In this document: piece after piece, positions 36,520 through 59,354 of the stretch | Layout: each line of letters starts with the position of its first letter | How positions within the stretch are numbered: position 1 is the first letter of the stretch | NCBI GenBank assembly: GCA_001772865.1 | Contig: MEVD01000015.1 | Location: forward strand, 9,084 to 73,083 | Source: a candidate division WWE3 bacterium RIFCSPHIGHO2_02_FULL_38_14 | GTDB lineage: Bacteria > Patescibacteriota > WWE3 > UBA101185 > UBA10185 | Reading direction: 5' to 3' | Length of the DNA stretch: 64,000 bases | The notes under the pieces: generated by a model | Databases searched by the model: none | Told to the model about the DNA's origin: nothing | Seen by the model: only the letters and a program-made list of their open reading frames with translations | Made by a program: the position numbers and the translations under genes

Positions 36520-36548
36520 TTGACAATTATCCGTTAGTATTATAAAAT
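36520..36548 (+). promoter_or_regulatory. Candidate sigma70-like promoter of pgsB-pgsCC copy 1
   Basis: Perfect -35 TTGACA at 36520..36525, and TATAAA/TAAAAT in the 15-17-bp spacing window, about 35 nt upstream of the ATG. The same TTGACA architecture occurs upstream of copy 2. Confidence 0.4.
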
Positions 36549-36581
36549 CCCCCCAACCAGTATTGTACTATTGGTATTATT

Positions 36582-37877
36582 ATGATTATTGTTGCTGCAA
36601 CAACATTGCTATTTTTAATATTTGTATTACTACAAAACTACTCGTATAGCCTTTTATTAAGAGGCGTGCCCTATAGAGTTCATGTTAATGGCATCCGGGG
36701 GAAGTCGTCTGTGACGCGCTATATCGCAGCAATCTTCAGAAAAGCTGATTTTATTACTTATGCAAAAACAACAGGTACGCAAGCTAGAATAATTGATAAT
36801 GAAGGTAATGAAAGTGAAGCACCAAGAAATGGCTCTCCTAATGTAAACGAGCAAATAACTATTATTAAGGACTTCATTAGCAAGGGTGCAAAGTCCATAG
36901 TTTTAGAATGTATGGCAATAAATCCGTTGTATCAAGAGTGGCTGGAAAATAAAGTTATTAAATCAAATATTTCAGTTATCACTAATGTAAGAACCGATCA
37001 TACAGATTATATGGGTGACACTTTGGAATCAATAGCAAAATCCTTAGCTACAACTATACCTACAAATGGCATATTAATTACGGGCGAAGAAAATCCGGAT
37101 ATTATAAATATATTAAAAAATAAATGCGAAAAAAATAACACAAGAATGATAGTTGCGGATAAATCAACTGTGAGCGATGAGGAATTAAATAATTTTGATT
37201 ATTATACCCATAAAGAAAATATTGCTATAGCTCTGGAAGTCGCTAAAATTATCGGTCTTGAGAGAAGTAAAGCAATGGAAAGTATGTTTAACGCTAACCC
37301 CGATCCCGGAAACTTTAAAATAAAATCCATAATGTATAAAAATAAGAACATAGCGTGGGCAAATCTTTTTGCAATTAACGATAAAGAAAGCTTTATTAAT
37401 GTGACAAAGGAAATATATTCACTTTATCCTAAATACACAAAAGTAATAATTCTAAATAACAGGTTTGACAGACCCAGCAGAGTAAAGTTGTTTACTGATA
37501 TTGTAACTAAAGAACACCCGGTTAATAAAATAGTAACGTTCGGTGATTTTGAAGAAGCAGTTAATAAATATGCTAAAAATAATGGTTTTAATTTAAATTA
37601 TGTTTTAAACCTTGGCAACTCCAGCAGAAAAAAACTAATTGAAGGCGAAGAACTATTTGACGCAATAATAGAGAGTATTAAGCAGAAAAATATTCTTTTC
37701 GTAGGCGCAATAAATACTCATACAGAACAGGCAGACAGGCTTTTAGAATGGATGTCTAATTTCGATAATAATTTACAAAAATTAGAAACCAAAGAAGCAT
37801 TAGTAAATACTTCTAATAATAATCTGTCATCTGGGAAAATTGGTAAAAATTTTAATTTAAGGGGGACACATGAGTAA
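36582..37877 (+). CDS. pgsB: PgsB/CapB-family amide ligase (poly-gamma-glutamate synthase-like, Mur-ligase fold)
   Basis: Family-diagnostic VNGIRGKSSVTRYIAA, AKTTGT.ARII, ECMAINPLYQ, ITNVRTDHTDYMG, TIPTNGILIT. Colinear with B. subtilis PgsB. Confidence 0.85.
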   Translation: MIIVAATTLLFLIFVLLQNYSYSLLLRGVPYRVHVNGIRGKSSVTRYIAAIFRKADFITYAKTTGTQARIIDNEGNESEAPRNGSPNVNEQITIIKDFISKGAKSIVLECMAINPLYQEWLENKVIKSNISVITNVRTDHTDYMGDTLESIAKSLATTIPTNGILITGEENPDIINILKNKCEKNNTRMIVADKSTVSDEELNNFDYYTHKENIAIALEVAKIIGLERSKAMESMFNANPDPGNFKIKSIMYKNKNIAWANLFAINDKESFINVTKEIYSLYPKYTKVIILNNRFDRPSRVKLFTDIVTKEHPVNKIVTFGDFEEAVNKYAKNNGFNLNYVLNLGNSSRKKLIEGEELFDAIIESIKQKNILFVGAINTHTEQADRLLEWMSNFDNNLQKLETKEALVNTSNNNLSSGKIGKNFNLRGTHE

Positions 37878-57070: not shown

Positions 57071-57112
57071 TTAGCCACCTACCCGAAAAGATACCAAATT
57101 CTAATTCAAAAT

Positions 57113-58387
57113 ATGTTGATAATAGCGCTTTTAACTGCGGCTTTTATATTGTACCTGTTGTACCAGGGCTATACCTATAGTAGTCAAATTAAAGACGTGC
57201 CTTACAGAATTCTGGTCAACGGAATCAGAGGAAAATCATCTGTAACCCGTTACATTGCCGCTGTATACAGAGAGGCAGGAATTACCACATACGCCAAAAC
57301 AACCGGAACTGAAGCCAGAATAATCGACAAGGACGGAAATGACATTAATATCCACCGCAACGGATATCCAAATGTAAATGAACAAATATATATAACGAGT
57401 AATTTCATTAAAAACAAAGCTGAATGCATAGTATCGGAGTGCATGGCAGTTAATCCCTTATATCAGGAGTGGCTGCAGAATAAAATAATAATATCCAATA
57501 TTTCGGTTATTACAAATGTCAGAACCGATCATACCGATTATATGGGAGAGACACTGGAGTCAATTGCTAATTCATTGGCAGCTACAATACCTACGAACGG
57601 TATTCTAATCACAAGTGAAAAAAATCCGAAATTATTAAATATATTCAGAGAGAAATGTAAAAGTAAGAATACCAAACTTAAAATGGCAGATATAAAATCA
57701 GTAAGCGACGAGGATTTAGCAAAATTTGATTATTATGTTCATAAGGAAAATATCGCAATAGCTTTGGAATTTTCAAAACTTTTAGGCCTGGATAATGACA
57801 AGGCGATTACGGCTATGAGCATGGCAACACCGGATCCGGGAACCTTTAAATTAACTCCTATTTCATATAAAAATATAAATCTGGTGTGGGCAAATCTATT
57901 TGCCATAAATGACAAAGAAAGCTTTGTTCAGGTTGCCAAAGATCTATATTCAAAACTAAAAGATTATAAAAAGGTCGTGATTTTAAACAACAGATTCGAC
58001 AGGCCCGGCAGAGTAAAAGTATTTACAGATGTTATAACTAAACAAAAACTAGCCGACTTAATAGTAACTTTCGGAGATTATGAAATAGAAGTAAATAAAT
58101 ACGCCTTAGCTAATAAGTATTCCGCAGATAAAATAATTAACCTGGGTAATGAATTCGGAAAGAAATCGTCTTCGGTGGAAGAAATAATGGATGAAATATT
58201 AAAATTTGTTCCGGGCAAAAATATATTAATAGTAGGTGCGGTTAATATTCATACCGAACAGGCGGATAGATTTTTAGAATGGTTAAAACATTCTGAAGAT
58301 GCAAAATTGCCTGTTTTCACTGTAAATAAATCAACAATAACAAAAATAAATAACAATTATAATTTCAGGAACTTATATGCAAATTAA
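57113..58387 (+). CDS. pgsB: PgsB/CapB-family amide ligase, second paralog
   Basis: VNGIRGKSSVTRYIAA, AKTTGTEARII, ECMAVNPLYQ, ITNVRTDHTDYMG. N-terminus from 57113 (MLIIALLTAAF...) aligns with copy 1. Substantially diverged from copy 1 (hand alignment, roughly 60% identity). Confidence 0.85.
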   Translation: MLIIALLTAAFILYLLYQGYTYSSQIKDVPYRILVNGIRGKSSVTRYIAAVYREAGITTYAKTTGTEARIIDKDGNDINIHRNGYPNVNEQIYITSNFIKNKAECIVSECMAVNPLYQEWLQNKIIISNISVITNVRTDHTDYMGETLESIANSLAATIPTNGILITSEKNPKLLNIFREKCKSKNTKLKMADIKSVSDEDLAKFDYYVHKENIAIALEFSKLLGLDNDKAITAMSMATPDPGTFKLTPISYKNINLVWANLFAINDKESFVQVAKDLYSKLKDYKKVVILNNRFDRPGRVKVFTDVITKQKLADLIVTFGDYEIEVNKYALANKYSADKIINLGNEFGKKSSSVEEIMDEILKFVPGKNILIVGAVNIHTEQADRFLEWLKHSEDAKLPVFTVNKSTITKINNNYNFRNLYAN

Positions 58388-59354
58388 TTTAGACAATATT
58401 GAAATATTAAGTTTAATACTTTGTATCGGTGTAATTACAGCAACCATTATAAGACGCAGAACGGGAATAAATCCTGGAGGTATTATTACTTCTCCGTTTA
58501 TGGTTATCAGTTTTATTTTTTCACCTTTATGGGGAATTACACTACTGGTTCTTGGCTATATAGTTTATAAAATATATAACAGATTTTTCACCCAGGTCTA
58601 TTTTGGCAGGTATCCCATGTATATAACAGGAATTTTATCTATTGTGCTTGTTTACGCCACGGCACTTATTTACACCAAACTTAACTTAGTATCTCAGATG
58701 AATTTAAATCACCTATACGGATTAATCGTTCCCGCGATTATTGCAATGGCAATCAGAAAGCAAGGTCCTGAAAAAACCTATAAATACACAGTTTTGAGTA
58801 CTTTAATTTCAGGGATTATTTTCTCAGCAGTATATTTGGCAATCACAGCTATCTTTAAATACGACTTTTATGAAATTGAAGGTTTGAGAGAAGGTTTACA
58901 GGACTTTTCACTGAACAATAGTTTTATACTGATTTTAGTTTCAATACTGGTAAGCTTTGTTATTTATTACTTCACAAAAATAAAATCAGGCGGATACATT
59001 GTGCTGCCGTATTTGGCTGTTCTGGCTTTTTACCCGAAAAACCTTCTGATATTTGCACTATCGCTTCTATTTCTTATTTGGATAGTAAAACTCTTAAAAC
59101 ACTATACTTTGGTGGTCGGTATAACCAGATATACACTAGTCCTTTGCGTGGCTATAGTGTTAGTAGGAACCATCGAAACCTATTTATTAAGAAACGGATT
59201 TACTATTTCTCCGTTCATGGGTGCCAATATCTTCCCTGCGCTGGCTTTAGCTGCAATTGCAAATGATTTTGCCGTGCAAAAAACCAGAAAAACAATACCG
59301 TACCTAGCTCTCAACTTAGCAGTTGTGGGAATCGTTTATTTCTTCCTAAGATAA
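58377..59354 (+). CDS. pgsC: Tandem-duplicated PgsC/CapC-like membrane protein, second paralog
   Basis: 325 aa, same doubled architecture as 37870..38847 (roughly 65% identity by hand alignment). Overlaps the pgsB stop by 11 nt. Confidence 0.7.
   Translation: MQINLDNIEILSLILCIGVITATIIRRRTGINPGGIITSPFMVISFIFSPLWGITLLVLGYIVYKIYNRFFTQVYFGRYPMYITGILSIVLVYATALIYTKLNLVSQMNLNHLYGLIVPAIIAMAIRKQGPEKTYKYTVLSTLISGIIFSAVYLAITAIFKYDFYEIEGLREGLQDFSLNNSFILILVSILVSFVIYYFTKIKSGGYIVLPYLAVLAFYPKNLLIFALSLLFLIWIVKLLKHYTLVVGITRYTLVLCVAIVLVGTIETYLLRNGFTISPFMGANIFPALALAAIANDFAVQKTRKTIPYLALNLAVVGIVYFFLR

Follow-up and report, generated by a model that had tools for sequence, protein, structure and literature searches.

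Two Paralogous pgsB-pgsCC Modules Probably Encode a Minimal Poly-gamma-glutamate Synthase in a WWE3 Bacterium

Introduction

What would a groundwater bacterium of the candidate phyla radiation (CPR, or Patescibacteria) do with two poly-gamma-glutamate (PGA) synthases? The question is raised by a 64-kb stretch of contig MEVD01000015.1 from the candidate division WWE3 bacterium RIFCSPHIGHO2_02_FULL_38_14, referred to here as the window. It contains two pgsB-pgsC modules, at 36582-38847 (locus 1) and 57113-59354 (locus 2), 20.5 kb apart. In each, a gene for a PgsB/CapB-family ligase is followed by a gene for a 325-amino acid (aa) PgsC-like membrane protein, here called PgsCC. A sequence-only reading had described two such pairs in the window, and all of their elements were recovered in the present analysis. 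Our results indicate that a PGA synthase of a minimal, two-gene type is probably encoded twice, by modules that are intact and paralogous. Most likely, both would be functional PgsB-PgsCC synthases under different regulation. The window has a guanine-plus-cytosine (GC) content of ~34% and nine transfer RNA (tRNA) genes, all single and spread over its length. Its gene set is bacterial and includes an OmpR-type response regulator, a histidine kinase, BlaR/BlaI, MacB/HlyD efflux, DsbA/DsbD, and alpha-2-macroglobulin. The BlaI-family regulator is encoded at 44688-45083 and the OmpR-family one at 49678-50364. A thaumarchaeal origin, to which the low GC content and dispersed tRNA genes might point, was rejected in view of the OmpR-type, HisKA, BlaR/BlaI, and MacB genes and of the match to a WWE3 genome.

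Results

The assignment of the ligases was examined with profile searches. The NCBIfam equivalog model for PgsB, TIGR04012, has a cut-off of 222.7 bits. PgsB1 scores 368.8 bits and PgsB2 scores 361.7 bits, with near the full length of the model matched, and the next best NCBIfam models for both proteins (FolC, MurC, and MurE) reach 17-55 bits, far under their own cut-offs. The Mur-ligase central domain (PF08245) is detected in the two copies with E values of 6e-13 and 2e-10. The P-loop GIRGKSSVTR, which the sequence-only reading had taken as diagnostic, is present in both proteins, and the N-terminus of PgsB1 is hydrophobic (MIIVAATTLLFLIFVLL). Those database relatives that have been named carry the PgsB annotation. 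These data place both ligases inside the PgsB/CapB family and dispel the earlier concern that they might fall outside it. Searches of PDB sequences returned no solved structure of PgsB or PgsC.

Conservation within the family was assessed at two levels. In an alignment of 10 sequences that includes Bacillus anthracis CapB, both PgsB copies retain 60 of 60 invariant columns. A second set is made up of the 95 columns whose conservation among 154 other PgsB sequences reaches 90% or more. PgsB1 departs from it at six columns and PgsB2 at seven; the changes are mostly conservative, and four fall at identical positions in both copies. With 88-89 of the 95 columns kept and four deviations coinciding, the sequences give no sign of a substrate difference between the copies, and the earlier suggestion of two distinct polymers or substrates is left unsupported.

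The partner protein is a fusion. PgsCC1 (86.8 bits) and PgsCC2 (80.6 bits) both pass the gathering score of the Pfam CapC family (PF14102, 27 bits), with two matched stretches per protein. The two homologous CapC domains cover residues ~10-154 and ~184-321. A profile-profile comparison of the N- and C-terminal halves with hhalign gives a probability of 98.8% (E 1e-16, 140 columns); therefore, each PgsCC is an internal tandem duplication of a PgsC unit of ~150 aa. A related motif opens each half, TGINPGGIITAPF in the first and TKIKSGGYIVLPF in the second, and its counterpart in B. anthracis CapC is TGILPAGLVVPGY. The AlphaFold2 model of PgsCC1 is all-helical and confident, with a predicted local distance difference test score (pLDDT) of 90.3 and a predicted template modeling score (pTM) of 0.88. 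Neither protein is thus a single-domain PgsC of ~150 aa, being 325 aa as compared to 149 aa in B. anthracis CapC, and the proposal that PgsC is fused holds for both loci.

The genes of each pair overlap. The pgsCC1 ATG overlaps the pgsB1 stop codon by 8 nucleotides (nt) (ATGAGTAA) and is preceded by a Shine-Dalgarno-like AAGGGGGA, and the pgsCC2 ATG overlaps the pgsB2 stop codon by 11 nt (ATGCAAATTAA) with a Shine-Dalgarno-like CAGGAA ahead of it. These features are consistent with translational coupling at both loci, as had been suggested from the letters. Both operons are full length, and frameshifts and internal stops are absent. For pgsB2, the list of open reading frames (ORFs) uses a GTG at 57059, whereas the gene callers in eight assemblies and the alignment to copy 1 favor the ATG at 57113.

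The copies are well separated in sequence. PgsB1 and PgsB2 are 58% identical by BLASTP and 59% in a codon alignment, and PgsCC1 and PgsCC2 are 54% identical in a gapless alignment. A hand alignment had put protein identity at 60-65%; the approximate level stands, but the measured figures are slightly lower. DNA identity is 65% for pgsB and 60% for pgsCC. Third codon positions are 45% (pgsB) and 40% (pgsCC) identical, which is near saturation, as compared to 79-80% for second positions. Similarity between the loci in blastn is restricted to the coding regions, and no flanking genes are common to both. PgsCC1 is 100% identical to A3F07_03900 of the WWE3 bacterium RIFCSPHIGHO2_12_FULL_38_15, and PgsCC2 corresponds to A3F07_04625. 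Each PgsCC recurs, identical in sequence, on about 20 contigs (roughly two dozen for PgsCC2) from different samples. In addition, both loci share one contig in independent metagenome assemblies (ERZ27254846 k141_308378 and ERZ27254754 k141_1617258). Because the copies have diverged at the protein and DNA levels and lie together on one contig in independent assemblies, the duplication is real rather than an assembly artifact, and its age, as first proposed, is old. Both copies appear to remain under constraint.

The relationship of the copies to other PgsB proteins was examined with a bootstrapped neighbor-joining tree rooted on CapB, in which placement relative to Mur ligases is assumed by the rooting. 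PgsB1 and PgsB2 fall into a WWE3-type clade (100% bootstrap) together with the fragment L120, two database relatives that are near-identical, and the metagenomic lineages L001 (JGI 3300063028) and L005 (SRR22388118). Cyanobacterial, actinobacterial, and Saccharimonadia sequences lie outside this clade. PgsB2 is sister to all of the remaining members of this clade (87% bootstrap), so the two copies separated before copy 1 diverged from L001 and L005, whose PgsB proteins are 60-64% identical to PgsB1 (64% for L001). A metagenome scan and a protein search found no orthologue of copy 2 in other species, and no protein-search match was nearer to it than copy 1. This absence is weak evidence because the protein search did not return PgsB2 itself. 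L120, a 70% match in the metagenome scan, was considered as a copy 2 orthologue and rejected because it is a copy 1-type fragment.

A PgsA partner was sought in the window. A jackhmmer search seeded with CapA gave no PGA_cap/CapA match when run against every window ORF of 70 aa or longer, and no window ORF of at least 300 aa has a Pfam match to PGA_cap (PF09587). CapD and CapE were not found in the window by phmmer with B. anthracis queries, a search that is weak for CapE, which is 47 aa long whereas the ORFs start from 70 aa. No PGA hydrolase was found in the window.

The prevalence of this arrangement was gauged across related loci. A scan of one genome per species gave 574 PgsB relatives, and the 80 best, at 35-47% identity, were studied. 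They come from Cyanobacteria, Acidimicrobiia and other Actinomycetota, Chloroflexota, Saccharimonadia, a Halomonas, and others, and nearly all have a two-domain CapC beside pgsB. These 80 loci lie in 80 different assemblies, although a more diverged second paralogue could score below them; it is plausible that two modules within one genome are uncommon. The best genomic and metagenomic loci together make 166 non-redundant loci, in which PGA_cap was counted within a flank of 5-8 kb. A double CapC is present at 97 of the 166 (PGA_cap in 36 of these) and a single CapC at 50 (PGA_cap in 6 of these); at the remaining 19, mostly on short contigs, the CapC ORF is absent or partial. All six PGA_cap assignments that were checked held up in Pfam. 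Both window loci fit the grouping of PgsB with an adjacent two-CapC ORF, an operational group of this analysis. An exhaustive profile search with PgsCC1 returned 61 clusters at 50% identity, mostly of collinear proteins of 320-340 aa. Given these locus counts, a fused PgsC with no adjacent PgsA is typical of a large uncharacterized branch of the family. The view that the architecture is unusual is overstated, as a fused PgsC is standard at 97 of 166 loci in Cyanobacteria, Actinomycetota, Chloroflexota, and Saccharimonadia. In the literature searched, no paper was found that deals with the double-CapC branch or with a fused PgsC, nor one about PGA in CPR bacteria or in cyanobacteria.

Several variants were seen among these loci. 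The single-CapC metagenomic loci (L119-L177) lack PGA_cap in their flanks in 44 of 50 cases, including several loci that extend over 16-17 kb; pairs of pgsB and pgsC without PgsA thus seem to be frequent in environmental genomes in general. In Ilumatobacteraceae/Acidimicrobiaceae (L037, L038, L039, L044, and L052), the double-CapC protein is 529-612 aa long, with a C-terminal extension of 200-280 aa that has no Pfam match. The PGA_cap proteins beside double-CapC genes in L025, L028, L054, L097, and others (Cyanobacteria, Actinomycetota, and Chloroflexota) are 700-830 aa long, ~2 times the Bacillus size, and several of them bear an N-terminal CarboxypepD_reg domain.

The WWE3 modules can be compared with four kinds of system. 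They share with Bacillus subtilis PgsBCA(E) and B. anthracis CapBCADE a ligase with an N-terminal anchor, a GIRGKS(S/T)VTR P-loop, and a Mur-ligase core, as well as a CapC-family membrane protein gene directly after the ligase gene. They differ from these systems in that PgsB is 31-33% identical, PgsC is a fused tandem, the window is without PgsA/CapA, CapD, and CapE, and two paralogous copies are present per genome. The closest named relatives are cyanobacterial pairs, with 42-50% PgsB identity. On plasmid pCHRO.01 of Chroococcidiopsis thermalis PCC 7203 (CHRO_RS29135, CHRO_RS29140), the gene for a 416-aa PgsB overlaps that for a 333-aa two-CapC protein, which RefSeq labels PgsC/CapC, and PGA_cap was not found within 8 kb, as at the WWE3 loci. 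The cyanobacterial pairs differ in having one copy per examined locus and other neighbors, and many other cyanobacterial loci, unlike those of WWE3, have a 700-790-aa PGA_cap with CarboxypepD_reg nearby.

The Saccharimonadia loci L043 and L061, and L051, which is labeled Coriobacteriales but has the same layout, also place a 320-aa double CapC beside PgsB (41-42% identical), and the Saccharimonadia are CPR hosts, as is WWE3. Their order is pgsCC-pgsB-capA, with CC before B and then a 405-467-aa PGA_cap, and there is a single copy per locus, in contrast to WWE3. L001 and L005 belong to the same clade as the WWE3 copies and are similar in size (PgsB 431-434 aa, double CapC 325-333 aa). However, a Peptidase_M23 gene lies upstream in both, and YdjC genes are absent. 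In L001, a gene for a poly-gamma-glutamate hydrolase (Gamma_PGA_hydro, PF05908), which has no counterpart in the window, lies directly upstream of pgsB.

The regions ahead of the two pgsB genes were searched for shared signals. Perfect TTGACA hexamers start at 36520 and 57042, 62 and 71 nt ahead of the pgsB1 and pgsB2 ATGs. The sequence-only reading was right about these hexamers, but its conclusion that the promoters match was not borne out. TTGACA occurs 32 times in the window versus 35.8 expected, and because it is not enriched, it has no statistical weight alone; as proof of a matching promoter it was rejected. Of the two loci, locus 1 alone has a near-consensus promoter: TTGACA-17-TAAAAT is the best promoter-like site within 36000-41000, a region with as many promoter-like sites as expected from shuffles, and L001 has TTGACG-17-TAAAAT at the equivalent position. 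The locus 2 site, TTGACA-17-TATAAG, is missing from the promoter-scan list. Its -10 box is imperfect, with the conserved final T replaced by G, and we attribute its omission from the scan to this base.

A more specific signal is CCCCCAA followed after 3-7 nt by TGTACTAT, which occurs twice in the window and not once in 100 shuffles. TGTACTAT itself has only two occurrences on both strands of the 64 kb, each just upstream of a pgsB gene and behind CCCCCAA. The locus 2 element is kept in eight of eight strain assemblies; the element was not found upstream of pgsB in L001 or L005. This element is a better and more specific shared signal than TTGACA, and it is a candidate common operator of both pgsB loci.

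Table 1. Positions of the two modules, their upstream signals, and nearby features in the window
Feature	Position	Strand	Description
pgsB1	36582-37877	+	431 aa; membrane-anchored Mur-ligase-type amide ligase, PgsB/CapB family; Mur_ligase_M domain
pgsCC1	37870-38847	+	325-aa membrane protein; two tandem CapC/PgsC domains
pgsB2	57113-58387	+	424 aa from ATG (442 aa from GTG 57059); second PgsB/CapB-family ligase
pgsCC2	58377-59354	+	325-aa double-CapC membrane protein
Sigma-70-like promoter, locus 1	36520..36548	+	TTGACA-17 nt-TAAAAT; consensus match at 11/12 positions
Weaker promoter-like site, locus 2	57042..57070	+	TTGACA-17 nt-TATAAG; read by eye
Shared upstream element, locus 1	36550..36571	+	CCCCCAA-N7-TGTACTAT; between -10 box and pgsB1 ATG
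Shared upstream element, locus 2	57050..57067	+	CCCCCAA-N3-TGTACTAT; within promoter spacer and -10 region
First YdjC-family gene	38924-39691	+	Sugar deacetylase-like; Pfam YdjC E 1.8e-36
Second YdjC-family gene	39684-40493	+	Sugar deacetylase-like; Pfam YdjC E 6.1e-26
CutA1-like ORF	~40510-40715	+	67 aa; weak match to CutA1 (divalent-cation tolerance)
EamA-like fragment	35542-35871	+	109 aa; Pfam E 1e-4, under gathering score
CPBP-like ORF	36256-36492	+	78 aa; CPBP/CAAX-protease-like FHG...HALHN ending
ORF-poor, GC-rich stretch	33900-35520		GC 42% vs ~34%; ~1 kb without convincing ORF
Acidic secreted protein	34881-35387		168 aa; signal peptide; ~43-aa internal repeat twice (DNNNAKANAPGQVAKNSEDTEDNGSTYAPGVLANESEDPDDNG)
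Alpha-2-macroglobulin homologue	27359-32638	-	1759 aa; MG2, bait-region, A2M, TED, and bMG10 domains
Upstream part of locus 2 gene run	49678-56984	+	Genes ahead of pgsB2

The neighborhood of locus 2 includes candidate regulatory and metal-handling genes. The locus closes a 9.7-kb same-strand gene run that consists, in order, of an OmpR-type response regulator, a HAMP/HisKA kinase, three small ORFs (two without a family match, then DUF5676), a copper-translocating P-type ATPase (TIGR01511, 583 bits; HMBD domain), a glyoxalase-fold protein, an acidic 315-aa protein with no family match, pgsB2, and pgsCC2. In B. subtilis, secreted PGA is reported to protect the cells against intoxication by zinc and copper (PMC9045300). 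Given this protection and the copper P-type ATPase upstream, it is plausible that locus 2 is tied to metal stress.

Locus 1 has a different setting. The first of two YdjC-family genes begins 77 nt past pgsCC1 in the same orientation, and the interval contains no predicted + strand terminator. The YdjC genes are possibly co-transcribed with locus 1, and their link to the synthase is uncertain; they are not conserved beside pgsB in L001 or L005. In strain assembly L179 (4904-5347), the second YdjC gene is represented by a 147-aa ORF rather than one of 269 aa and is probably disrupted. The CutA1-like ORF (L178 7643-7846) lies between this gene and TauE, and downstream of it come the TauE, DUF3105, DsbD, and DsbA genes. 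An all-against-all BLAST of the window, L001, L002, and L004 found no conserved third gene beside pgsB-pgsCC; only the YdjC pair matched mutually.

Upstream of locus 1, the EamA-like and CPBP-like fragments suggest past rearrangement or decay. Farther upstream is the GC-rich stretch in Table 1, within which Rfam gave no match; for the ORF-poor stretch upstream of locus 1, its sole hit was the tRNA. Between its bait region and A2M domain, the alpha-2-macroglobulin homologue has a Hint/intein-like module, seen in PT-HINT, Vint, and Intein_splicing hits at ~aa 850-980.

Discussion

The family assignment allows a mechanism to be proposed. PgsB would be anchored by its hydrophobic N-terminus, with the Mur-ligase-type ATPase domain in the cytoplasm. 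By analogy to its family, it would activate the gamma-carboxyl group of the chain with adenosine triphosphate (ATP) and then add glutamate. PgsCC, as two covalently linked PgsC units, would form the membrane part and the export path. What sets the copies apart is most likely their regulation and context and not their chemistry, with locus 2 following a two-component system and a copper ATPase and locus 1 lying beside YdjC, TauE, and Dsb genes.

The best contextual support for gamma-PGA as the likely product of the WWE3-type clade comes from the hydrolase gene that adjoins pgsB in L001, the nearest independent relative. PgsB and PgsC have been named as conserved synthase components (PMC4497714), and B. 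subtilis overexpressing pgsBC without pgsA yields 26 g/L of L-rich PGA (PMC6029982). The pairing of PgsB with a double CapC across 97 loci, with PGA_cap nearby in just 36, also counts in favor of two-gene sufficiency. However, PGA was undetectable when Bacillus PgsBC was produced in Escherichia coli without PgsA (PMC7490850). Because this result contradicts the one in B. subtilis, the sufficiency of two genes is not settled.

The failure in E. coli is one of several observations that weigh against two functional PGA synthases. The nearest characterized enzyme, B. anthracis CapB, is 31-33% identical to the WWE3 ligases and 31-32% identical to PgsB1 in particular. PgsCC1 and PgsCC2 score 50.7 and 60.8 bits on the NCBIfam PgsC equivalog model TIGR04011, under its cut-off of 96.45 bits. 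No biochemical characterization of any double-CapC system was found in the literature searched, and the YdjC genes beside locus 1 may hint at a product that is linked to sugar. A PgsA gene may lie elsewhere in the genome, as the window covers 64 kb of a 527-kb contig. The connection between locus 2 and copper stress is one of gene order in one species only. Lastly, the failure to find a copy 2 orthologue elsewhere makes it uncertain whether lineages have kept both copies over the long term.

Some of these observations would also fit a different activity, in which the modules glutamylate or polymerize onto another acceptor (a cell-envelope glycan or lipid) or use another amino acid, the double-CapC proteins being a functionally distinct branch. 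The distance from characterized CapB, the low TIGR04011 scores, the lack of PgsA, CapD, and CapE within 64 kb, the missing precedent for a double-CapC system in the literature searched, and the two YdjC-type genes after locus 1 with no intervening terminator predicted all lean this way. We nevertheless consider it improbable. Both PgsB proteins lie ~140 bits over the equivalog cut-off, a gamma-PGA hydrolase gene adjoins pgsB in the nearest relative, and a canonical PGA_cap gene is found at about a third of the double-CapC loci; the YdjC genes, for their part, do not accompany pgsB in relatives, and a strain of the same species has one of them disrupted. It is more improbable still that one module is redundant and heading for loss, with no distinct role. 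Patescibacteria have small, streamlined genomes, locus 1 is closely preceded by gene fragments (EamA-like and CPBP-like), and the promoter match at locus 2 is imperfect, all of which would favor such a reading. However, both operons are full length and uninterrupted, and both PgsB proteins keep every one of the 60 invariant columns and deviate at only six or seven of the 95 highly conserved ones. The excess of identity at second over third codon positions (79-80% versus 40-45%) fits long purifying selection, and each PgsCC is found unchanged on about 20 contigs from different samples.

A separate issue is the origin of the second module, which may have been acquired laterally from a related Patescibacteria lineage, making the copies xenologues rather than old in-genome paralogues. 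This account, which we regard as possible but somewhat unlikely, draws on the branching of PgsB2 outside the group that unites copy 1 with L001 and L005 (87% bootstrap), the failure to find a copy 2 orthologue in any other species, the single module visible on the L001 and L005 contigs, and the absence of common flanking genes, with blastn matches limited to coding regions. Set against it, both copies and their relatives form one clade (100% bootstrap) apart from the cyanobacterial, actinobacterial, and Saccharimonadia sequences, and the species-specific CCCCCAA...TGTACTAT element is common to both loci. The L001 (13 kb) and L005 (4 kb) contigs are short, so a second copy is possible there, and the missing orthologues count for little because PgsB2 is absent from the protein database that was searched. 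An old duplication and a transfer from a related lineage could each have given rise to the two copies, and the data do not separate these origins.

A bolder version of the two-synthase reading can also be formulated, although we give it only a small chance of being correct. In it, PgsB and PgsCC would constitute a self-sufficient synthase and exporter in which the PgsC pseudo-dimer makes PgsA unnecessary. The copies would be kept for polymers that differ, for example in chain length or stereochemistry, or else for different envelope stresses, with copy 2 serving a copper/metal response and the CCCCCAA...TGTACTAT element acting as a common operator.

Conclusions

The two modules are a duplicated, PgsA-less, fused-PgsC variant of a known synthase in a CPR genome, a modest curiosity rather than a new kind of system. 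The family is already recognized by annotation pipelines and the fused form is common in public genomes, so current understanding is not overturned. The role of PgsA is disputed (PMC7490850 versus PMC6029982), and a naturally fused PgsC-PgsC protein, tightly coupled to PgsB and lacking a PgsA gene close by, offers a compact candidate system for the biochemistry and structure of PGA polymerization and export. If the reading of two PGA synthases is true, this CPR bacterium, which is uncultivated and probably depends on a host, would have in its PGA capsule or matrix a concrete and testable surface feature. That two diverged copies are kept in a streamlined genome suggests that the polymer matters to the organism.

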